A stretch of 16,150 bases of DNA from a virus: UHGV virus genome UHGV-0095173. One strand, given 5' to 3'. This document shows, one piece after another, positions 1 to 7,902 of this stretch (the first letter of the stretch is position 1; each line of letters starts with the position of its first letter). The notes beneath the pieces were generated by a model, which saw nothing but the letters and a program-made list of their open reading frames with translations, had not been told where the DNA came from and made no database searches. Position numbers and translations under genes: made by a program.

Positions 1-584
1 TCAGCTATAAAGCTGTTGTGAAGTTCAGCAAGCGTTTCACGCCCGAACGGGGTCAGCTCTCCGCGTTCCGCATCCAGCATGGCGCGGTAGAACACAATGG
101 CGTTCTCTGTTCCCTGCTCAACGCCGTAGCGCTCAATCATTGCGCCCTCGATGTTGTTTGCCATCGCCAACCGTTCAGCAAACGGGTAAATCACCATGCC
201 CGCATTGCCATTGGAGTAAATCGCAACCTGCGATGATGTGCCGTCAGTGTCAGTAACCGTGGTGGTGCCATTCTCGCGCGTCATCTCAGAAACGAACGTC
301 GCAGCAATCAGCCAGCGCCACATGGTTACTTCATGCTGCGCGGTGAAGTCGAACCAGCCACGCTCCCCGCCGTCAGCCACTGCCAAATGCAGGGCAAATC
401 CTTCATCGGTCTTATTGTCATACTCACCCGCATCCAGACGTACTACGACTTTTTCGTAGTTGATAAGAGCAACATGCTCATACATTCCGGCATCATTGCG
501 GGTCATGATATTGACGCCGTGCGGTGTGGCTTCGGCGTGGAACAGGTCGGGATTTCCCGGTTTAATGGTCAGTATATTGCTCAT
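1..584 (-). CDS. hypothetical protein, 5' part only (at least 194 codons; ORF runs past window start)
   Basis: ATG at 584-582 overlaps the stop of the upstream gene (ATGA at 581-584). My reverse-complement translation (MSNILTIKPGNPDLFHAEATPHGVNIMTRNDAGMYEHVALINYEKVVVRLDAGEYDNKTDEGFALHLAVADGG...) has no stop down to position 1. Absent from the ORF track because no stop lies in the window. No family recognised. Confidence 0.5.
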   Translation of the reverse strand, partial: MSNILTIKPGNPDLFHAEATPHGVNIMTRNDAGMYEHVALINYEKVVVRLDAGEYDNKTDEGFALHLAVADGGERGWFDFTAQHEVTMWRWLIAATFVSEMTRENGTTTVTDTDGTSSQVAIYSNGNAGMVIYPFAERLAMANNIEGAMIERYGVEQGTENAIVFYRAMLDAERGELTPFGRETLAELHNSFIA

Positions 585-802
585 GCTTTGCCCTCCCGAT
601 ATTCACGCATTACATGGTCAGCTAGCTTGCTTTCAGCCTCGCTCATTGCTTCGGGCACACCGTGTAACAGCGTCAGAATGGAACCTATAAGGCGTGGTAA
701 ATCGGGATCTGTTTTATTGGTGGTGCTCTCCAGCCACATGGACAAAACAGCCTGTGCCTGTTCAATCTGGCAGGCAGCATCAATCAGTTTTAACTGGCTC
801 AT
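581..802 (-). CDS. hypothetical small protein (73 aa), paralog of the neighbouring 59-aa protein
   Basis: ORF track entry. Start overlaps the stop of the upstream gene (ATGA) and its stop overlaps the next start. Shares a QAQ-VL-MWL core with the 799-978 product. Confidence 0.5.
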   Translation of the reverse strand: MSQLKLIDAACQIEQAQAVLSMWLESTTNKTDPDLPRLIGSILTLLHGVPEAMSEAESKLADHVMREYREGKA

Positions 803-978
803 TTGTCACTCTCCACTGCCAGCGCATCAGCCAGCCCGTCTAAGATTGTCAGCACCGCATCCACCATATCGGGCGCTTCCCCGTCGTCGGTGGTCATGGT
901 GTGAAGCCACATGGTGAGGACGGTCTGCGCCTGTTGGATTCTGCACATTACTTCACTAACGCTTAGTCCCTGTTTCAT
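799..978 (-). CDS. hypothetical small protein (59 aa), paralog of the 581-802 product
   Basis: Not in the ORF track (under 60 aa). Hand translation: MKQGLSVSEVMCRIQQAQTVLTMWLHTMTTDDGEAPDMVDAVLTILDGLADALAVESDK. ATG at 978-976 overlaps the stop at 975-977; stop at 801-799 overlaps the ATG at 802-800. Confidence 0.45.
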   Translation of the reverse strand: MKQGLSVSEVMCRIQQAQTVLTMWLHTMTTDDGEAPDMVDAVLTILDGLADALAVESDK

Positions 979-1172
979 CGCTTCCCCTCCCGTTCTGCCA
1001 ATTCTTCAATCAGCCATGCGGTAACGTCACCGGAAAGGCGCTTTAGCAGAGTGGCGATTGCGGATACTTCGCTATCTGCAAGGCGGTGGGGGAAGTCTTC
1101 AACAAGACGGGCAATTATCTCAGTCTGGTGGGCGCGTTCTGCTGCCTGCTCTAAGGTGATTTCACGGCTCAT
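975..1172 (-). CDS. hypothetical small protein (65 aa)
   Basis: ORF track entry. Preceded by AGGAGGTG embedded in the upstream gene; ATGA overlaps at both ends. Confidence 0.5.
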   Translation of the reverse strand: MSREITLEQAAERAHQTEIIARLVEDFPHRLADSEVSAIATLLKRLSGDVTAWLIEELAEREGKR

Positions 1173-1348
1173 GCTGCCACCTCCTGAATACGAGTAATAC
1201 GAACGTGCTTATAACCGCCTTTATTCGCCAGTAGTTGCGCAGTCGATTTAGCTGTTTCTGGACTGGTGCTAGTCATGGTGTAGTGAATGCCGACGGTGTT
1301 ACCGCGCTTGTTAACAGCGTATCCGTCGATCTGGAAGGTTTTACGCAT
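1169..1348 (-). CDS. hypothetical small protein (59 aa)
   Basis: Not in the ORF track. Hand translation: MRKTFQIDGYAVNKRGNTVGIHYTMTSTSPETAKSTAQLLANKGGYKHVRITRIQEVAA. ATG at 1348-1346 lies just downstream of the recombinase-like stop (1341-1343); its stop overlaps the next start (ATGA). Confidence 0.45.
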   Translation of the reverse strand: MRKTFQIDGYAVNKRGNTVGIHYTMTSTSPETAKSTAQLLANKGGYKHVRITRIQEVAA

Positions 1349-2219
1349 TTCCGACCTCCATTGCTAAACGGGACTGGATAGCTGCCGCTTTACTGCCTAA
1401 TTGCAGGTAAGTACGAGTTATCGCAGGGTTGCTATGACCCAGCATTTCAGAGGCCACTAATAGGCCCTGTTCGCCACCTGCGGACATGAGGTTAAAGGCG
1501 GCTATTTTGCGGCTTGAGTAGGCGCTCAGGCGCAATTTAGCGTTAATGAAACGGGTAAACCACGCCATGACGCCATGAAGTTTGCGCCAGATGGTTTGGC
1601 GAGTAACGCTACCTTCCAGACGTTGACAACGGTTACTTTCGATTTGAGAGCGGGAAAATACCAGGTCGTCCTCCACCAGATTCCGATCCTGACGGTCACG
1701 CAGCCGCTTGATAATGCCGGGGGGTAACTGTTTGGTGTCGTGCTTGACGTCAGCCTTAGCCACCAGCCCGAACACAATCGCCTGTTCTTCGTCGTTCATA
1801 TCGGCGGCCAGTTCATCACAGCCGATACTATCCCACTTCATGTAGGCGATATGGTCAGCGGCGAGCCGCGCGGCGTCCTTGCGCTGCTGGCGCACAATTT
1901 CAATACCTTTGCGGGTTGCCCGCGCTTCTGCGGCTTTGGTCTGTTTGGAAACGATAATTGTCGCCTGTCCAGTTTCCCAATTGATGCAGGAATAGCGCAG
2001 GTTGCAAACGTCGCTGGTACGCCAGCCGGTTACGGTCGCAATATCCCACCAGAGCAACACCCAATCGGGCTGTGTCTGCTGGATGCGCTCGCGTAGCTTG
2101 CGCTGCTCGTCACGGTCATAGACAGGGGTCATGGTGCGACTGCCCTTTGTGCTCGCCGCTTTAACGACATTGCCGCGCAGCTCGCGGGCTTTGGCTGTCA
2201 GAGTCTGGAGGTTAAACAT
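1341..2219 (-). CDS. tyrosine recombinase-fold protein (phage integrase family, catalytic domain, about 292 aa)
   Basis: C-terminal LGHSNPAITRTYL matches the tyrosine-recombinase box II signature (His and catalytic Tyr). Box I-like TGWRTSDVCNLRY. The usual HxxR appears as SSRK. Start placed at ATG 2219 (MFNLQ...) because GGAGGTG sits 4 nt upstream; the track's longer ORF begins at a TTG at 2312. Confidence 0.65.
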   Translation of the reverse strand: MFNLQTLTAKARELRGNVVKAASTKGSRTMTPVYDRDEQRKLRERIQQTQPDWVLLWWDIATVTGWRTSDVCNLRYSCINWETGQATIIVSKQTKAAEARATRKGIEIVRQQRKDAARLAADHIAYMKWDSIGCDELAADMNDEEQAIVFGLVAKADVKHDTKQLPPGIIKRLRDRQDRNLVEDDLVFSRSQIESNRCQRLEGSVTRQTIWRKLHGVMAWFTRFINAKLRLSAYSSRKIAAFNLMSAGGEQGLLVASEMLGHSNPAITRTYLQLGSKAAAIQSRLAMEVGNA

Positions 2220-2400
2220 GACGCACCTCCGGCACTGGCAGACGTGCGGCCAGAGACAAAATAAAGTGCGGCGCAAGGATGCGGCGGGCTTCGCGTTCGG
2301 TCGCAGCCTCAACGGACAGACGGCAAGGTTTGGCTTTTTTATCGTGGCGATTCAGCGCGAGAAAGCGCCAGGTGAATTTTGAGTGTGCGGATCTAGCCAT
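2212..2400 (-). CDS. hypothetical small protein (62 aa), first gene of the operon
   Basis: ORF track entry. AGGAG about 9 nt upstream of ATG 2400. Its stop overlaps the recombinase-like start (ATGTTTAA). Function unknown. Confidence 0.45.
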   Translation of the reverse strand: MARSAHSKFTWRFLALNRHDKKAKPCRLSVEAATEREARRILAPHFILSLAARLPVPEVRHV

Positions 2401-2720
2401 TTTTAGCGGCTCCTAGAACATATTGAAGGAGTCTCGCCAGATGCTGCTAAACATGGGTGGCGAGACGTGACGGGGTTAGCAGACTGGCGTTCTAGGAAAC
2501 CAGCAGGCGTTAAGCCTCCCCACCACGCCCCGCCATAAATCGGGGGTATGGTTGGTTTTCGGGCGTAAAAATACCGCTATACGGAAATCAGCGGCTACCC
2601 GCTAGAACGTTCAGGCTGCTAAACCCGGCACCCGTTTTGTGAGGTGCAAAATAATCATAACCACACTACCCCGTTAAGCGCAAGGGAAATATCCCCTGCG
2701 CCCACAATGCAAACTTGTGA

Positions 2721-3791
2721 TTAGTACCCGCGAGAAGCGTAAACTCGTGCCATGCCAGCCCAATGAGAGAAAAGAATTTCCCACTTAATTGGGTTGTAGG
2801 TAATACTTCCATCGACTGCGGCAGCATTCCATGCCCGATCAGAAATAGAGCTATCTTTAGCAGTTTTCCCCCATTCAACAATATCCCTTGCTAAAGCCTG
2901 TACACATGCTCGACTGACTACCTTTTCGTCAACGTACGCCCCAACATCAGAGCATGACTCCATACTCATGTTCAGGCTATTTTTAAGGGACTCCAGCCCG
3001 GCCACTGACATAAAGCGACGACCATTAGCGTATGCAACACCGTCATTCCTGATAGTGAACTTAACAGTGTGGAATGCGTCAACAATCATCCGCTGCTCTG
3101 GCGTCGGGTTCTGCCATAGCACAAGGTTAATCTCTCTCTCAGAAGCTATTGATTCTGCTTTCTCACGCTTAACTCGTGCATCCCGTTCTGCCTGGTATTG
3201 TTTTTGATTTTCATCATGAGCCTTTTGGTAACTAGAGGCTAATGCGTCTCTGTTTTTGGCAAATGCTGCAATGCTATTTTTGAAATCGCTTCTGCTAACC
3301 TTGTTTAACCCCATACTCCAGCGGTCATTTTCGTAATCATCATAAATGGCATCAACTTTTGCCGGATTACTCAGCACAGTCGCCAGATTAACCGGAATTT
3401 TAGCCATCTCGTCACTGATTCTCGCTACATGTTCGAAAGTCGATATAGAGCCAACTTCATGACTCCCATACTCATGATAAGCGGCATAAAAAATTGGAAT
3501 AGATTGAGGTTTTTCGTTCACTGACTTAATGATGCTTTTTTCATCACATGACTGTTCACCCCATTTGAAAACACTTTTCCCACCATTTTTGTATGTGTTG
3601 CAATCATCAATACCCAAACGAACCAGCGCATCCCATCCGGGCCGTTTCTTGTAATCCTCGCTCTTGACAACATGCATTGTGGTTAGGGCTTTCGCAGGAT
3701 CTAACTTGCCAGCGGTACAAGACACGATAGGAAAGGCCAGAGAAGCGCAGGCTGCTATCCTGAAAAGGCTCGTCAATCTTTCTTTTTTCAT
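2721..3791 (-). CDS. predicted lipoprotein (356 aa), cargo gene of unknown function
   Basis: N-terminus MKKERLTSLFRIAACASLAFPIVSC has a basic n-region, hydrophobic core and lipobox-like IVSC followed by T. Central charged, coiled-coil-like stretch (YQKAHDENQKQYQAERDARVKREKAES). Looks AT-richer than flanking phage genes by eye. No family recognised. Confidence 0.7.
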   Translation of the reverse strand: MKKERLTSLFRIAACASLAFPIVSCTAGKLDPAKALTTMHVVKSEDYKKRPGWDALVRLGIDDCNTYKNGGKSVFKWGEQSCDEKSIIKSVNEKPQSIPIFYAAYHEYGSHEVGSISTFEHVARISDEMAKIPVNLATVLSNPAKVDAIYDDYENDRWSMGLNKVSRSDFKNSIAAFAKNRDALASSYQKAHDENQKQYQAERDARVKREKAESIASEREINLVLWQNPTPEQRMIVDAFHTVKFTIRNDGVAYANGRRFMSVAGLESLKNSLNMSMESCSDVGAYVDEKVVSRACVQALARDIVEWGKTAKDSSISDRAWNAAAVDGSITYNPIKWEILFSHWAGMARVYASRGY

Positions 3792-3843
3792 CGTCCTAAT
3801 GCTCTTTCAAACCAAGAATGTAGGACATAGTAAATTGTGGTTA

Positions 3844-4170
3844 ATGGCAAGTCGATATAAAGGCCGGGTTATTGGCTTCGGTGCCAATATCATTTCTCCG
3901 AAATTTCATAACGCCTGTAATCGCTCGTTTCCCCATCTTGGGGACATTTCAAAACTGCGAATCAAAGTGCGAATGGAACTGCGAATTCGCAAAGAGAGAG
4001 CGCCGCTCAAAGCAGGCCGGATAAGGCTTCGCGGACATATTGCGAATGCGAATCCACCAGAAACGAAACGCGAATCACCCATAAACAAAACCGATACGCA
4101 GGGAGCGTACTGCCCGTATTCAATCGGCCGAAAAGTCAGCCGATTAAAATCATGCCCGGCTATCCCCTGA
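3844..4170 (+). pseudogene. terS-like relic: diverged inverted copy of the 5' part of the prophage small-terminase gene (possibly an intact 108-codon ORF)
   Basis: An 18-mer caccagaaacgaaacgcg at 4055-4072 is identical to the reverse complement of terS 11811-11828. TGCGAAT repeats at 3956-4075 mirror those at 11904-11958. The frame from ATG 3844 gives MASRYKGRVIGFGANIISPKFHNACNRSFPHLGDISKLRIK..., resembling TerS MAKPDWGELQQRFLSEHAKTGISPKEWCEAQGLNYSTAKRYIKIA. The repeat block is read in a different frame from terS and I found no convincing RBS. Confidence 0.3.
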
Positions 4171-4630
4171 AATTTCAGGAGATCGAGAGCCACCAGCAGA
4201 GAACCGTTCATGCCATCGGTAACTTGCAGCCCGAAGCTCAAATCTGAGCGTTGACCGCCAGCCAGAAGAAACCATTTTAAATCCCGCGCCTTCTCTTTGG
4301 ATGAACAGGGTTACTCCCCGTAATGCTGTGAACTGCCACGATGATTCGGGGTTGTGTTGCGCTGGCCTTTGAGTCCCGCACAAACACTGACCCACAAAAT
4401 TTTTGTAGGTGACTGGCCCTCTTGATGAGGTGCTGTTTTGCGTAACCCTTAATGAGTTGTGCAAAGGCTCAACCCTTTAAAAGGGTTGCCTAACCACCGG
4501 CGATAGTAATAACCGCCAACCTATGAACACTATGAACACCTTTGAGCATTTTTCTATAAACATTCCACTACTGCCCTATTTGATGCCTTTCTCTGGCTGG
4601 CCTGTGTAAGTTACCGTTGCTGGGAACTGA

Positions 4631-4668
4631 CAATAAAAAAGGCTTGCCCCTCTCAGGTAACAAGCCTT
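4631..4668 (-). terminator. intrinsic terminator downstream of alpA
   Basis: Minus strand: 8-bp stem AAGGCTTG / CAAGCCTT with a 14-nt loop followed by TTTTTATTG, about 20 nt past the alpA stop. Confidence 0.5.
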
Positions 4669-4685
4669 GTCTATCGCTCTGGATC

Positions 4686-4898
4686 TCACTCACTACAGAT
4701 TCCGCGCTTTTGGCTCTGTCTTCCGATCCACGCCTCCACCTCATCGCGATACCAGCAATTGCGGCCGCCAACTTTGAAGGGCATCGGAAAGCCGTTCCCC
4801 TCATCCTTCAGAAATTCATAGAACGCAGAATCAGAACGGTAGCGTAGACGGGCTTTAACTTCGACTTTGAGCAAAATATCACTGTTAGATATGGACAT
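4686..4898 (-). CDS. alpA: AlpA-family transcriptional regulator / excisionase-like protein (70 aa)
   Basis: GFPMPFKVGGRNCWYRDEVEAWI matches the AlpA signature (FP-P-K-GGR-W-EVE-WI). GAGG RBS 5 nt upstream of ATG 4898. Sits next to a P4-type integrase. Confidence 0.85.
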   Translation of the reverse strand: MSISNSDILLKVEVKARLRYRSDSAFYEFLKDEGNGFPMPFKVGGRNCWYRDEVEAWIGRQSQKRGICSE

Positions 4899-4973
4899 AA
4901 AAACCTCATTATATATTCGATATAATTATATATGATTTGAATAAAAAAAACGCATTCCGGTTAGCTTTGGGCA

Positions 4974-4999
4974 TAAAAAAAGCTGGCTTAAAGCCAGCT
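4974..4999 (-). terminator. intrinsic terminator downstream of int
   Basis: Perfect inverted repeat AGCTGGCTT / AAGCCAGCT (4981-4999) followed on the minus strand by a run of 7 T, about 40 nt past the int stop. Confidence 0.6.
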
Positions 5000-5040
5000 A
5001 TACCCGTTTGAAATCATGATTATCCAGAAATGGATGTGCC

Positions 5041-6270
5041 TTACACAACCAGCCTCAAGCCCTTATCGCCGCTGGTCTCCAGTATTTCGCCACACTCTGC
5101 GGCCTCGATAAAGTCCCCCCACCATTGCATTAAAACCCGGCGTTTTTCCAGATAGTCGCTACGGTTATAAACATTTCGAATCGCATCGGCGCTTTTGTGA
5201 GCGAGTGCAGCCTCAATCACATCAGGGTTGAACCCCTCGTCATTTAAAACTGTAGATGCCAACGCCCTGAACCCATGAGGAACAATCAGCCCTTTAAACG
5301 ACGTTTTGTGTATCCCGGCCTGAGTCGCACAGCGTGAGATCGGCTTATTTTCTTTTCGCCATGAGGGGAAAACATAATCGCAGCGCTTCCACTTTTCGGC
5401 CTCTTTAAGCACGTTTATAGCCTGGCTCGATAATGGGACTACGTGGGGGCGCTTTCCTTTCATCCGGCTTGCAGGGATTTGCCAGATTGAGTTATCAAAA
5501 TCAATCTCATTCCAGAGAGCGCCGCCAGCCTCCGAAGGCCGGACCATCGTAATGATCTGGAATAATAATGCCAGCTTTGATGGCTCCCATAAGCTCAACT
5601 CGTTCCATGCGCTTAAAAATTCGGGCAACCGCTCTTTCTGTAAAGTCGCTCTTGGCTCGTTTTTTTCAGCCGGGAATGCTTTACCAATTTTCGATAGCGG
5701 GTTGTGCTCAATAACCCCAATGTTTACCGCATAATCCATTATGGCGTTGATGGTAATAACCATTTTCGTAAGCGTTGATGGCCTTTCCCTGAAAGGTTTA
5801 AAAGCCTGAATAGTATCGGCTGCGTTTATTTTATGTACCGTGGTATGCCTAAAAATCGTGGAAAGATGCTTCAACGTCACATTGTGCGATTCAAGCGTGT
5901 TGCTTCTCGCACCTTCTTTAATCTTGATTTTTAGCCATTCATCGGCAACGGCCTGAAATGACTGCGCGTACATTTTACGCTGTTCATTCCTGGCATCTTT
6001 TTTGACTTCGTTCGGATCTATCCCTCGCGCTACCATACGGCGCAGTTTCGAACGTTCCTCCCTCGCTTCGGACAAAGTAAACTCCGGGTATCGTCCAATA
6101 GTATAGGTTTGTCTCTTCTTCGTTACCGGGTGTACATACCGAAAACGCCATGACTTACCGCCCCGGCTTGTGATGTAAAGCAACAAACCGAAACCATCGT
6201 GCAAACTGAAATCCTTGCCCTGTGCCTTCGCGCTTTTCACTTCGACGCTAGTTAGTGGCCTAACAATCAT
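5041..6270 (-). CDS. int: tyrosine-type site-specific integrase, P4-like (409 aa)
   Basis: N-terminal arm-binding-type domain (GKSWRFRYVHPVTKKRQTYTIGRYPEFTLSEAREE). C-terminal catalytic region with HGFRALAST and downstream Tyr (RNVYNRSDY). GAGG RBS 7 nt upstream of ATG 6270. Confidence 0.95.
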   Translation of the reverse strand: MIVRPLTSVEVKSAKAQGKDFSLHDGFGLLLYITSRGGKSWRFRYVHPVTKKRQTYTIGRYPEFTLSEAREERSKLRRMVARGIDPNEVKKDARNEQRKMYAQSFQAVADEWLKIKIKEGARSNTLESHNVTLKHLSTIFRHTTVHKINAADTIQAFKPFRERPSTLTKMVITINAIMDYAVNIGVIEHNPLSKIGKAFPAEKNEPRATLQKERLPEFLSAWNELSLWEPSKLALLFQIITMVRPSEAGGALWNEIDFDNSIWQIPASRMKGKRPHVVPLSSQAINVLKEAEKWKRCDYVFPSWRKENKPISRCATQAGIHKTSFKGLIVPHGFRALASTVLNDEGFNPDVIEAALAHKSADAIRNVYNRSDYLEKRRVLMQWWGDFIEAAECGEILETSGDKGLRLVV

Positions 6271-6484
6271 TCAACACCTCTCTGGCTACCATGTAATGCA
6301 AACGGCGCATGATTCTCTTTCTAGTCCCTCATGTACCGAATCAAAGCGAAATCCGGCGAATAAATCCGCACATGTTCGGAGTGTCATTTTTATGGTTCAG
6401 GCCAGTAACGCCGTATGATTCCGAACGATAACGCACTGATTAATAGATATTAGTTGCATAAGGTACAGATATGCAGTCATTGGA

Positions 6485-7705
6485 TTATCCTTTGCGGTTA
6501 GACCAGAAGTCGGCGTTTTGTTTGTTCAGGGAAGCGATGCTGGTCATGCCCATATTTGGACGTTGTGCATCGCCCGTGGTGCTGCGGGTGTTTCGCCCTT
6601 TGGCAATCTCTGACACGGCGTTAAACGCCATATCTACCGATTGCTTGGGCAATTTGCGGATATCCGCATCACCGACAACCTGGCGAACCAGTGTTTTGTC
6701 AGCGGCAGCCAGCACATCACGTTTGAACGCGGTCGGTTTCACCTTACGGCTCAGATCGATACCCGGGACGATAACTTCGGCACGATAAGCAGCGTCACCA
6801 GTAATCGTGGTTTCTTCTTCATCGTCCTCGCCGTCACCGGTCGGATTATCGTCAGGATTATTGTCGTTATCGCCCGTCGCAGTTCCTTCGAGCTTAGCCA
6901 GCAGGGCTTTGAGCAAGGTTTTGATATCGTCCTCGCCGTCGCCGGTTGGCTCTCCGCCCATTTCCGGCTTTTTGTCCGGCAATGGTTGCTGCGGTGAAAG
7001 GTTAATGTTGAGGTTAACGCCGCTCGGCAGATCCCCTTCGTCACCCGTTACCGCCGCTGGCGCAGAGTCCAGCAGTTCGTTCATGGTGTCAGCGTCACCC
7101 GTTTTGATGGCCGTGCGCATGCGGGTCCACCAGCTTTTCTTTTGATTTGCCATTGTGTCTCTGTCTCCAATTGCACAACGATTTCCGGCTCTGCCTTTGG
7201 GGACAAGAGCCACATGGTTTCCGGTAATATCGACCTGCTCGGCTTTACCTGGCTCGGTCTGCTCGTACTCCGCGTCATAGCCGCACGACACTTCACGCAG
7301 GCCATCTTCGATAAGCTGAATGGCGTTTTCGTCTTTGACGATAAGGTCAGCCAGCATCAAATCAGACTGATCACCAGTCCCGCGCCGAACGTTCTGAAGA
7401 TGCCCGACCGCAAGCTCTTTCCAGTTCTCGGGGTTGACCAGCCGCACATTCCCGTTTTCATCTTCAGGATGCAGGATCGTGATGCTCATCCCTTCGAATG
7501 AGGCGAGCGTGGCCGGATGGAATACCTGCTCAGGAGAACGCGTGACGACTATTTCACCGAACTTATCGGGTTTCAGTTTTGGCAGGTCATCAGCACCATA
7601 GAGCTGCTTACCCGTTCGACCTATCGGCACGTCTTTGCACAGCAGCGAGCCGTCAGCCAGCTGATAGCGGGTTTCCCCCAGCCGGGTGTAGAAGAAATAT
7701 TTCAT
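6485..7705 (-). CDS. phage head scaffold/protease-like protein (DUF2213-like, 406 aa)
   Basis: Follows portal and head-morphogenesis genes. Motif GNHVALVPKGRAG. Acidic, low-complexity C-terminal half with two PTGDGEDD copies. Start overlaps the upstream stop (ATGA). DUF2213 assignment is from memory. Confidence 0.75.
   Translation of the reverse strand: MKYFFYTRLGETRYQLADGSLLCKDVPIGRTGKQLYGADDLPKLKPDKFGEIVVTRSPEQVFHPATLASFEGMSITILHPEDENGNVRLVNPENWKELAVGHLQNVRRGTGDQSDLMLADLIVKDENAIQLIEDGLREVSCGYDAEYEQTEPGKAEQVDITGNHVALVPKGRAGNRCAIGDRDTMANQKKSWWTRMRTAIKTGDADTMNELLDSAPAAVTGDEGDLPSGVNLNINLSPQQPLPDKKPEMGGEPTGDGEDDIKTLLKALLAKLEGTATGDNDNNPDDNPTGDGEDDEEETTITGDAAYRAEVIVPGIDLSRKVKPTAFKRDVLAAADKTLVRQVVGDADIRKLPKQSVDMAFNAVSEIAKGRNTRSTTGDAQRPNMGMTSIASLNKQNADFWSNRKG
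6806..7051 (-). repeat. in-frame acidic repeat region inside the scaffold-like gene
   Basis: Near-identical 22-bp direct repeats at about 6821-6843 and 6927-6949 (atcgtcctcgccgtc[a/g]ccggt[c/t]gg), encoding PTGDGEDD twice amid a Gly/Asp/Asn-rich stretch. Confidence 0.6.
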
Positions 7706-7902
7706 CCATCCGCCGCCTTAGTGGATTTAATAAACTCACGCAGCAGATGCTTTATCTGACGCGCATTACCACGACCTATAAGTTGGCAGCGCTTTGCTCT
7801 ATCACCAACAGATTGATAAATAGCCTCTACGCCATTGTATTTAGCAGTGATGCGCGTAGCTTCGCTGGCCTGTTCTTTCAGGAAATAGATTGTTTTTTCC
7901 AT
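7702..7902 (-). CDS. hypothetical small protein (66 aa) between head-morphogenesis and scaffold genes
   Basis: ORF track entry. AGGT about 6 nt upstream of ATG 7902. Its stop overlaps the scaffold start (ATGA). Basic C-terminus (KRCQLIGRGNARQIKHLLREFIK). Confidence 0.5.
   Translation of the reverse strand: MEKTIYFLKEQASEATRITAKYNGVEAIYQSVGDRAKRCQLIGRGNARQIKHLLREFIKSTKAADG

Follow-up and report, generated by a model that had tools for sequence, protein, structure and literature searches.

A probable C4-RNA-controlled early operon of a PICI/P4-type phage satellite and its compact, apparently active tyrosine recombinase

Introduction

One end of the 16,150-nucleotide virus genome UHGV-0095173 (the window) carries a chain of overlapping small genes, the second of which encodes a tyrosine recombinase that is cut short at its N-terminus. 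We asked to which kind of operon these genes belong and which DNA the recombinase would act on, given that a full-length integrase is encoded in the same window. On balance, we lean towards reading the region as the early ('left') operon, under immunity control, of a PICI/P4-type satellite of about 12 kb; that its apparently active recombinase operates in a Cre-like way on the free circles is possible rather than probable.

A chain of seven cistrons

From position 2400 to past position 1 the minus strand of the window is densely packed with seven cistrons.

2400..2212, minus strand: 62-aa ORF (Icd/Kil-like)
2219..1341, minus strand: 292-aa tyrosine recombinase, no core-binding domain, helical insert
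1348..1169, minus strand: p59a, 59 aa, no family match
1172..975, minus strand: p65, 65-aa helical protein of a phage family (phrog_1478, 2e-30)
978..799, minus strand: p59b, 59 aa, paralogue of p73 (phrog_20558, 2.4e-4)
802..581, minus strand: p73, 73 aa (phrog_20558, 1.8e-10; phrog_2196, 2.7e-6)
584..<1, minus strand: p194, at least 194 aa, N-terminal part of a conserved 208-aa protein (phrog_1515, 5e-46)

Starts and stops overlap at all cistron junctions, twice by 8 nt and then four times by 4 nt (ATGA), and a GGAG/GGAGG motif lies 6-9 nt upstream of each of the seven starts. The ORF coordinates, the overlaps and the Shine-Dalgarno motif at each junction bear out the seven-gene chain that an earlier, sequence-only reading of this DNA had described. 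That reading had placed ATGA, or an overlap close to it, at the five junctions from the recombinase onward. This holds for four of them, while the junction of the recombinase with p59a (ATGCGTAA) is an 8-nt overlap that is not ATGA. The 62-aa ORF and the recombinase are likewise joined by an 8-nt overlap (ATGTTTAA). Both 59-aa ORFs are genuine as it had supposed, being annotated elsewhere as WP_049041008.1 (ABWA45) and WP_002436684.1 (ECONIH4); the latter is 100% identical to p59b.

All cistrons tested, i.e. the recombinase, p65, p59b, p73 and p194, are under purifying selection. dN/dS was 0.0-0.3 for the four small proteins, with 0.10 for p73, and 0.03-0.10 for the recombinase at a dS of 0.4-2.5. 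p59a was left out of this analysis, the only homologue compared being an identical sequence.

The leader of the operon

The 62-aa ORF matched the NCBIfam model NF033153 (phage_ICD_like) with 1.2e-22 and 79.7 bits at a cut-off of 25, and phrog_1743 with 1e-20. In tblastn it was 47-52% identical to the C-terminus of the P4 'cI ORF', to N15 gp32 and to PY54 icd. Judged by these matches, the first ORF is an Icd/Kil-like protein. Upstream of it we found an RNA leader with the following elements.

2453..2540, minus strand: C4-type antisense (immunity) RNA (Rfam RF01695, 75 bits, E 2e-13)
2567..2647, minus strand: IsrK-like leader element (Rfam isrK, 44.6 bits, E 1e-7, below the gathering score of 50)
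2622-2616 and 2609-2602, minus strand: upstream C4 target boxes a1 (TTAGCAG) and b1 (CGTTCTAG), within the IsrK-like element
2450-2444 and 2419-2411, minus strand: downstream C4 target boxes a2 (TTAGCAG) and b2 (GTTCTAGGA), exactly complementary to C4

The RF01695 match spans the full model (1-87), and its 75 bits compare with a gathering score of 45. Within the IsrK-like element the c4-a1b1 model of Rfam scored 18.3 bits; the 3' end of the element forms a hairpin followed by a U run. Boxes a2 and b2 are exactly complementary to positions 59-65 and 44-52 of the C4 RNA, which correspond to a single-stranded linker and to the loop of hairpin 2, respectively, and b2 overlaps the AGGAG Shine-Dalgarno sequence of the icd-like ORF. 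The upstream boxes a1 and b1 are complementary to C4 as well. The a..b pattern occurs three times against 0.00 expected. A promoter scan of the leader yielded no consensus promoter. A C4 RNA also precedes the recombinase gene in loci L009, L011, L012, L013, L015 and L020, and it is present in L010, an element without the recombinase. The sequence-only reading had noticed neither the C4 RNA leader nor that the 62-aa ORF is Icd-like.

Database proteins in which the recombinase carries an N-terminal extension with PF10554 suggested an Ash/Eta protein or an Ash-recombinase fusion. We rejected both: the extensions represent C4 RNA translated in the frame of the recombinase, and the fusion fails because every leader frame in the window has stops (all three frames of 2401-2720).

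The C4 RNA, its target boxes on the icd Shine-Dalgarno sequence and the Icd-like ORF therefore mark an early operon of the P1 immI/P4 left-operon type. Transcription would enter the non-coding leader through the IsrK-like a1/b1 element and run on over the C4 RNA and then a2/b2. Pairing of C4 with a2/b2 would mask the ribosome site of icd, which b2 covers. Each later cistron starts within the stop region of its predecessor. With icd translation blocked, the entire message would presumably stay untranslated and liable to terminate early, by analogy with P1 immI and the P4 left operon. Once C4 control is lifted, at helper induction or upon entry into a new cell, ribosomes would pass through icd, the recombinase, the small proteins and the primase-helicase. 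We infer this coupling of translation and termination by analogy, and likewise that in vivo the C4 RNA is processed, translation blocked and transcription ended early. A promoter, cleavage of C4 by RNase P and Rho-dependent polarity are presumed to be as in P1 and P4. For helper-embedded PICIs, Tommasini, Mageeney & Williams 2023 (PMC10111431) place C4/isrK RNAs in a 'Bro zone', and they review how translation of P4 CI/kil/eta governs termination.

The satellite and its integration site

Comparison with related elements indicates that the operon belongs to a PICI/P4-type satellite of about 12 kb that sits inside a late gene of a SEN34-like prophage.

5041..6270, minus strand: primary P4-type integrase (PF13356 1e-23, PF22022, PF00589 1e-22)
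4686..4898, minus strand: 70-aa AlpA-like ORF just downstream of int (PF05930, 16.8 bits, E 0.0065, sub-threshold at a cut-off of 21)
2721..3791, minus strand: 356-aa cargo gene with a lipoprotein-like N-terminus, no family match
6462..6475, no strand assigned: satellite/prophage junction core GGTACAGATATGCA, from comparison with uninterrupted phage SEN34 and both ABWA45 junctions

The primary integrase has arm-binding, central and catalytic domains and matched the P4-type model NF007246 with 9e-101 and 337.5 bits, a score under the cut-off of 434 bits. As to the order int, AlpA and primase, the integrase match is clear, the AlpA-like ORF is sub-threshold, and the primase lies beyond the window and was seen in ABWA45. 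The junction core falls into codons 3-7 of the SEN34-type virion-structural ('cement') gene of the helper, with which the satellite is co-oriented. The elements of ABWA45 and Apirhabdus use the same insertion site; the cargo gene is missing from the otherwise related Apirhabdus element.

The recombinase

The 292-aa protein has the catalytic-domain fold of the PF00589 superfamily. An alignment with XerA placed the catalytic residues at R67, D70, Y234 (in place of His), R237, H262 and Y271; K92 is also retained. Box I, box II, the catalytic Tyr and the absence of an N-terminal DNA-binding domain, all noted before, stood up to alignment and fold. The motif read earlier as SSRK in place of HxxR was mis-registered: Y234-S-S-R237 aligns with H-x-x-R of XerA, with the Arg retained and His replaced by Tyr. 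A loss of the catalytic Tyr or Arg, which would have made the protein a relic, is not seen, as Y271, R67 and R237 are kept. In 28 distant family members, with identities as low as 17%, R, D, K, R and Y do not vary. Tyr234 is confined to the close clade, and distant members have the canonical H-x-x-R.

The protein has no core-binding (SAM-like) domain. The catalytic domain begins after only about 35 residues, and in distant members it is preceded by no more than 3-8. A helical insert of about 65 aa (residues ~91-155) lies between strands 85-89 and 160-164, i.e. in the beta2-beta3 hairpin. Alignment and predicted fold thus describe a 'simple', catalytically intact and apparently active tyrosine recombinase of a distinct subfamily without a core-binding domain. 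Its activity is unproven, because we know of no characterised precedent for a tyrosine recombinase without this domain. Recombinase-primase fusions (PF03288) were considered as functional evidence and rejected; they resemble deletion products without the Tyr.

Distribution of the recombinase

The recombinase was found in 21 of 5426 E. coli genomes, directly after icd in every one. The gene is accessory and rare, fills the position just behind icd and is swapped as a single-gene module. The family as a whole comprises roughly 90 clusters. No homologue was present in 50,697 phage genomes. In a scan of species-representative genomes, all ten full-length chromosomal matches were accompanied, 1-6 kb upstream, by a separate integrase-like match, as was the truncated eleventh (L021), and no hit belonged to the plasmid clade. 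Homologues also occurred on small circular elements.

Citrobacter plasmid pRHBSTW-00021_2, 8580 bp, complete record: homologue 74% identical to the recombinase
Moellerella plasmid, 8725 bp, complete record: homologue
K. pneumoniae plasmid, 8712 bp, complete record: homologue; circles also assembled in several metagenomes
Shigella plasmid, 13.3 kb, complete record: homologue and ParA
Shewanella metagenome contig, 6.4 kb with a 139-nt terminal overlap: homologue; few ORFs annotated

Circular metagenome contigs of 6.4-9.5 kb carry homologues as well. On the small, circular, non-mobilizable, capsid-encoding elements the homologue is the sole recombinase annotated or detected. Thus autonomously replicating circles carry homologues as their recombinase, while the copy in the window is itself integrated. 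In four of these circle backbones the gene follows a small regulator or small ORFs and lies just upstream of a replication gene. The product of the latter varies between a DUF5906 primase, a wHTH Rep-like protein, and Toprim plus VirE; in the neighbour on the Shewanella contig no replication domain was recognised.

The searches for a recombination site were crude. Among k-mers outside the gene, the 12 recombinase-bearing loci shared only coding-sequence and Chi-like matches and no common site. In blastn-short comparisons of non-coding DNA the window and the plasmids had nothing in common besides the gene itself, and a repeat search found no inverted repeat common to distant contexts. One 20-mer common to two plasmids is missing from the window.

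Role of the recombinase

Because its relatives are the only recombinase annotated or detected on small capsid-encoding circles, we infer a Cre-like role for the 292-aa protein; Cre serves P1 in multimer resolution and cyclisation. The proximity to replication genes, the absence from the phage genomes and the separate integrase-like matches of the chromosomal carriers speak for this role as well. The substrate would be the free, replicating circular DNA of the satellite, on which the recombinase might resolve multimers or cyclise packaged concatemers, with integration and excision left to the separate full-length integrase. We advance this role tentatively, as possible rather than probable. Among the options named in the sequence-only reading, a replication-associated recombinase fits best, while the 12 loci hold no evidence of a switch with an invertible segment. 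A wider proposal is that recombinases with the beta2-beta3 helical insert and without a core-binding domain constitute an uncharacterised minimal class dedicated to phage satellites and satellite-plasmids, which would keep the circle monomeric or re-circularise concatemers and recognise their site without a DNA clamp. We regard this generalisation as doubtful.

Being the sole recombinase annotated or detected on circles of 6.4-13.3 kb would also suit an integrase. The plasmids might be excised integrative elements, and the protein would then be their true integrase and, in the satellite, a second integrase ('Int2') with an alternative attachment site. Satellites are mostly integrative, and early transient expression upon entry would be appropriate for an integrase. 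For nine or ten satellites of this kind, PMC10111431 notes 'secondary internal int genes'. Yet 185,579 species-representative genomes yielded no integrated copy from the plasmid clade, and four complete genome projects deposited the elements as plasmids, one of them with ParA. Furthermore, the protein has neither an arm-binding nor a core-binding domain, and repeat and k-mer searches of related loci did not find att-like repeats. Where annotation was retrieved, the carrier islands occupy the site expected for the primary integrase: this is tRNA-Thr in L009, and for L001, L011 and the window it is the prophage late gene. Several other carrier islands have tRNA genes close by. An integrase function is unlikely on these data.

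The gene lies behind the immunity RNA, in the variable zone that satellites use for proteins directed at the helper. This location, its rarity and its exchange as a single-gene module could also point to foreign DNA as the target. The recombinase would then nick or rearrange the helper genome, or invert a segment as a switch; PLE NixI provides a precedent for a satellite nicking effector. On the other hand, the family adjoins replication genes on plasmids without a resident helper in cis, and the carrier islands are unlikely to share one helper because their host genera and integration sites differ. The loci compared had no conserved site and no sign of an invertible segment, and PADLOC assigned none of nine proteins, the recombinase included, to a defence family. 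We therefore consider a foreign target improbable. Less probable still is a DNA-binding regulator with recombinase fold that does not catalyse strand exchange. Such regulators exist in the SPbeta master repressor MrpR and in SroF of phi3T, and in P1 the slot behind icd is occupied by Ant, so that the gene would be in an 'antirepressor' position. The invariance of R, D, K, R and Y in the 28 distant members, however, disfavours the recruited regulator envisaged earlier.

Comparison with known systems

The chaining of the operon is real, and its type is that of the known C4-RNA/Icd-led early operons of satellites. This PICI/P4-type identity comes close to the well-described early operon that the sequence-only reading had set against its own view. 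The arrangement as such is known and ordinary for satellites, and the recombinase is its uncharacterised part. With the C4/Icd leader recognised, the small first ORF and the chain of overlaps are accounted for, and database annotations in which the C4 RNA is read as protein are corrected.

As in P1 immI (c4 antisense RNA - icd - ant1/2), a C4-family RNA lies upstream, the a and b boxes are duplicated, the second b box covers the ribosome site of the short Icd reading frame, and the next gene overlaps the icd stop. Unlike in P1, a recombinase and a replication operon instead of an antirepressor follow icd, the element is a satellite and not a phage-plasmid, and its regulation is read from sequence alone. 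The P4 left operon has the order PLE - seqA - CI RNA - seqC - kil/eta - eps - orf151 - cnr - alpha. The satellite shares with it an immunity RNA, behind which come small genes and, as seen in ABWA45, a primase-helicase, a leader ORF 47% identical to the Kil/Icd-like C-terminal part of the 'cI ORF', and the match of its integrase to the P4-type model. In contrast to P4, it has no Eta/Ash reading frame across the RNA, a primase of the TOPRIM/DUF927 type (in ABWA45) and an extra recombinase. An eps homologue was not recognised, and neither the annotation of the near-identical ABWA45 element nor the matches of the window proteins include sid, delta, psu or eps.

Helper-embedded PICIs, as described in PMC10111431, also lie co-oriented within a prophage late gene and may contain the secondary internal int genes. 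Their order is int-(AlpA)-variable zone with C4/isrK RNAs-replication zone, which the satellite would follow if its sub-threshold AlpA-like ORF and the primase seen in ABWA45 are counted. The target in the window is different, namely the start of the SEN34-type virion-structural gene beside DUF2213. The accessible parts of the text and supplements mention neither ABWA45 nor DUF2213, and the recombinase is not characterised in them. With Cre/loxP, XerCD/cer and ResD/rfsF the recombinase has in common that a simple tyrosine recombinase with a full catalytic set is found on small circular replicons, once together with ParA. It differs by the missing core-binding domain and the 65-aa beta2-beta3 insert, and no lox- or res-like site was found for it in the 12 loci and the plasmids. 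The cf-PISP/PISP of Vibrio (PMC13230959) are episomal satellite-plasmids, of which cf-PISP has a 'distinct tyrosine recombinase'. These too are small capsid-encoding circles without a classical integrase, but with other hosts and another gene order, and the recombinases can be likened by description only. The element in the window, on the other hand, is integrated and has its own integrase.

At about 265-300 aa the recombinase is compact; it retains the full catalytic set but lacks the domain with which other members encircle DNA. Selection on it is strong, and in Enterobacterales and Shewanella it is linked to replication modules, both of satellites and of the small capsid-encoding plasmids. 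Should it act on a short site, it would reveal how a tyrosine recombinase manages without a core-binding domain. Satellite biology would gain a maintenance function, and the enzyme might find use as a small tool for recombination.

Small proteins and downstream genes

The small proteins had been thought to belong to no known family; phrog_1478, phrog_20558, phrog_2196 and phrog_1515 were nevertheless matched. p59a, for which profile searches and PADLOC gave no family, follows the recombinase only in the window and in ABWA45 among the loci examined. p59b and p73 cross-match each other. p65 is 95% identical in ECONIH4, where it lies directly behind icd. p194 corresponds to a protein of 208 aa in E. 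coli ABWA45, which has 563 homologue clusters in Enterobacterales, all of about 208 aa. A Cnr-like identity of this protein stays a weak lead because a single 33-aa BLASTP match (E 0.004) had no Pfam match to support it. In ABWA45 the gene is followed by a 113-aa ORF and a 926-aa primase-helicase with Zn-ribbon, TOPRIM and DUF927 domains. The operon backbone leads to a primase in both ABWA45 and ECONIH4.

Leader and C4 RNA of the operon

Target boxes, C4 antisense immunity RNA and Icd-like ORF follow one another in the window as they do in the P1 immI operon and the P4 left operon. The operon very probably is an early operon of this type, i.e. a further member of an already known type. Rfam placed the C4 RNA at 2540-2453 with 75 bits against a gathering score of 45 and an E-value of 2e-13. 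The loop of its hairpin 2 and the adjoining single-stranded linker are the exact complement of two box pairs, and box b2 overlaps the AGGAG of the 62-aa icd ORF.

Target boxes of the C4 RNA, by complementarity
2622-2616 and 2609-2602, minus strand: upstream boxes a1 and b1
2450-2444 and 2419-2411, minus strand: downstream boxes a2 and b2

The window holds three occurrences of the box pattern, two as target and one as complement within C4, versus 0.00 expected from shuffles. The upstream pair sits in an IsrK-like element (44.6 bits, below threshold; E 1e-7) that has a hairpin and U run at its end. A match to NF033153 (1.2e-22) identifies the 62-aa ORF as Icd-like, and its homologues are N15 gp32, PY54 icd and, in P4, the Kil/Icd portion of the 'cI ORF'. 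The sequence-only reading had missed both the nature of this small leading ORF and the C4 RNA 5' of it.

In P4, CI/seqA pairing brings about termination of the leader transcript, which is averted when kil/eta is translated (PMC10111431). By analogy, the chained overlaps of the genes described below would make the entire operon dependent on translation of icd, and the recombinase would be expressed only once the island is derepressed.

The C4 RNA gene is overlain by PF10554 (Phage_ASH) hits and by long 'Icd-like' and 'ash family protein' annotations (window 2453-2720; protein records P0001 and P0063; compared locus L010, 10169-10999). Because 2401-2720 of the window contains stops in all three reading frames, at least some of these calls are translations of a conserved RNA.

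Anatomy of the operon

Seven consecutive minus-strand genes, as described before, occupy the window from 2400 to 1.

Genes of the operon
2400..2212, minus strand: 62-aa ORF (icd), ATG at 2400
2219..1341, minus strand: 292-aa ORF (tyrosine recombinase)
1348..1169, minus strand: 59-aa ORF (p59a)
1172..975, minus strand: 65-aa ORF (p65)
978..799, minus strand: 59-aa ORF (p59b)
802..581, minus strand: 73-aa ORF (p73)
584..<1, minus strand: ORF of at least 194 aa (p194), N-terminal part of a 208-aa protein

The first 8-nt overlap (ATGTTTAA) and the last four ATGA overlaps were as previously assigned, but the recombinase/p59a junction, formerly counted with the latter, is a second 8-nt overlap (ATGCGTAA). 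A GGAG-type ribosome site lies 6-9 nt 5' of each of the seven start codons. Both 59-aa ORFs have annotated protein counterparts, in E. coli ABWA45, which carries a near-identical satellite, and in ECONIH4, a related locus without the recombinase. The dN/dS was 0.03-0.10 for the recombinase and 0.0-0.3 for p65, p59b, p73 and p194, p59a being excluded since its sole homologue is identical. By their annotation elsewhere and the low dN/dS, the ORFs are real genes.

The window and ABWA45 are 96-99.9% identical except for a swapped p65/p59b segment. Beyond the window the ABWA45 sequence completes the 208-aa gene and adds to the operon a 113-aa gene and one for a 926-aa Zn-ribbon/TOPRIM/DUF927 primase-helicase. 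The products of p59b and p73 (581-978, minus strand) are paralogues, both matching phrog_20558 and having QQAQTVLTMWL / EQAQAVLSMWL motifs in common. The conserved 208-aa protein encoded 5' of the primase (window 1-584, minus strand; L001 15958-16584) has a faint similarity to P4 ORF106/Cnr (DUF5375), consisting of a single BLASTP match over 33 aa and of weak PF17345 hits precomputed for some homologues.

The satellite and its insertion site

Head genes belonging to a SEN34/Omnitron-like myovirus prophage take up the window from 6485 on. SEN34 itself has 4 bp between its DUF2213 gene and the virion-structural gene that comes next; in the window the satellite lies between the two.

Features of the satellite upstream of the operon
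2721-3791, minus strand: 356-aa protein with a lipoprotein-like signal (…PIVSC…)
4898-4686, minus strand: 70-aa AlpA-like ORF, Pfam score below cut-off
6270-5041, minus strand: P4-type integrase, by family match
6462-6475: satellite/prophage junction core GGTACAGATATGCA, within codons 3-7 of the virion-structural gene

The configuration matches the helper-embedded PICIs of Tommasini et al. 2023 (PMC10111431), a paper that reports C4/isrK RNAs in their variable zone and in which the DUF2213-adjacent site was not found. Apirhabdus apintestini has the same integrase and the same insertion site. Since the ABWA45 element has no annotated sid, delta or psu, the satellite is not strictly P4-like. The AlpA-like ORF, directly downstream of the integrase, is unannotated in ABWA45. 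The 356-aa gene is probably cargo, since its product had no match in Pfam, NCBIfam, PHROG or PADLOC, and the gene occupies a stretch of lower GC, with the AlpA-like ORF on one side and the leader on the other, and is missing in the related Apirhabdus element.

Insertion of the island detaches the first seven codons of the virion-structural gene from their context (window 5041-7705; L001 9840-22100). Short, clustered direct repeats at 3942-4088, within an otherwise unannotated stretch of ~1.25 kb (3792-5040), comprise AACTGCGAAT three times at 12-bp spacing and TGCGAATC-type repeats; they may represent iterons or sites for the binding of a regulator. Two segments are present in the window and missing from ABWA45, 4167-4442 (276 bp) and 7706-7895 (190 bp), the latter also missing from the Apirhabdus locus.

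Catalytic residues and distribution of the recombinase

Alignment with the tyrosine recombinase XerA put R67 and D70 (box I), Y234 and R237 (on H-x-x-R), H262 and Y271 on catalytic positions. Box I and the catalytic Tyr noted earlier were borne out, with both Tyr and Arg kept. The supposed 'SSRK where HxxR is usual' was out of register, as the alignment reads Y-S-S-R. R67, D70, K92, Y234, R237, H262 and Y271 were invariant in 24 homologues. This still held for R67, D70, K92, R237 and Y271 in a set of 28 members with identities as low as 17%, the position of Tyr234 being the canonical His. An exhaustive profile search gave ~90 family clusters at E<1e-10; near-full-length matches have 263-306 aa and start no more than a few residues from the catalytic domain, and those remaining are fragments or fused gene calls.

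The recombinase gene was present in 21 of 5426 complete E. coli genomes, each time adjoining an Icd-like gene, while some part of the operon backbone (window 1-2700) was present in ~500. In ECONIH4 the 65-aa gene directly follows icd, a gene order which marks the recombinase, here with p59a, as an accessory insert. Across Enterobacterales the recombinase gene follows C4-icd in islands whose primary integrases are unrelated, their identity to that of the window being 22-99%. No homologue was detected in 50,697 phage genomes.

Small circular non-mobilizable elements that carry replication genes and encode a major capsid protein have the family homologue as the only recombinase annotated or detected. 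In four backbones its gene is flanked by a small regulator or small ORFs on one side and by the replication gene on the other.

Circular elements with a recombinase homologue
Citrobacter complete plasmid, 8,580 bp: 74% identity
Moellerella complete plasmid, 8,725 bp
K. pneumoniae complete plasmid, 8,712 bp: size identical to circular metagenome contigs
Shigella complete plasmid, 13.3 kb: with ParA
Shewanella circular metagenome contig, 6.4 kb: only partly annotated

Possible role of the recombinase

We tentatively favor a Cre-like function on the free satellite circle, in multimer resolution or cyclisation. The enzyme is a simple recombinase that travels with replication genes, would come on only upon derepression of the island, and is the sole recombinase seen on plasmid-state relatives. 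The main weakness is that no recombination site was found on comparing recombinase-bearing loci or the window with the plasmids. A secondary integrase is an unlikely alternative to which the published satellites lend a precedent, in uncharacterised 'secondary internal int genes' (PMC10111431). In the searchable literature the subfamily appears only under generic annotation or, putatively, as such 'Int2'-type secondary integrases. A helper-directed or inversion enzyme is less probable still, and a non-catalytic regulator, considered beside the invariant R67, D70, K92, R237 and Y271, is the most doubtful proposal.

The circular set (L030, L031, L032, L005-L007, L022 and L008) comprises complete plasmids of 8.6-13.3 kb and metagenome circles of 6.4-9.5 kb from Citrobacter, Enterobacter, Moellerella, Klebsiella, Shigella and Shewanella. 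In most of them a member of the recombinase family and replication genes are combined with genes for a major capsid protein and further phage-type proteins, and a classical integrase is lacking; such small capsid-encoding circles resemble the Vibrio 'satellite-plasmids' (PMC13230959). The Enterobacter kobei plasmid record L033 (NZ_CP110875.1, 34,300 bp) is a head-to-tail tetramer of a ~8.58-kb unit (starts at 5383, 13961, 22544 and 31124) with the recombinase annotated in one copy only; it could be a genuine multimer or a long-read assembly artefact.

Finally, a distant homologue is encoded on AT-rich phage contigs (L002 8900-9140; L003 10542-15294). There a promoter-like sequence right after the recombinase gene is followed by two or three type I-F-like CRISPR repeat units with only 14 nt between units, and one variant continues with tandemly arrayed pairs of a 76-aa and a 123-aa gene.
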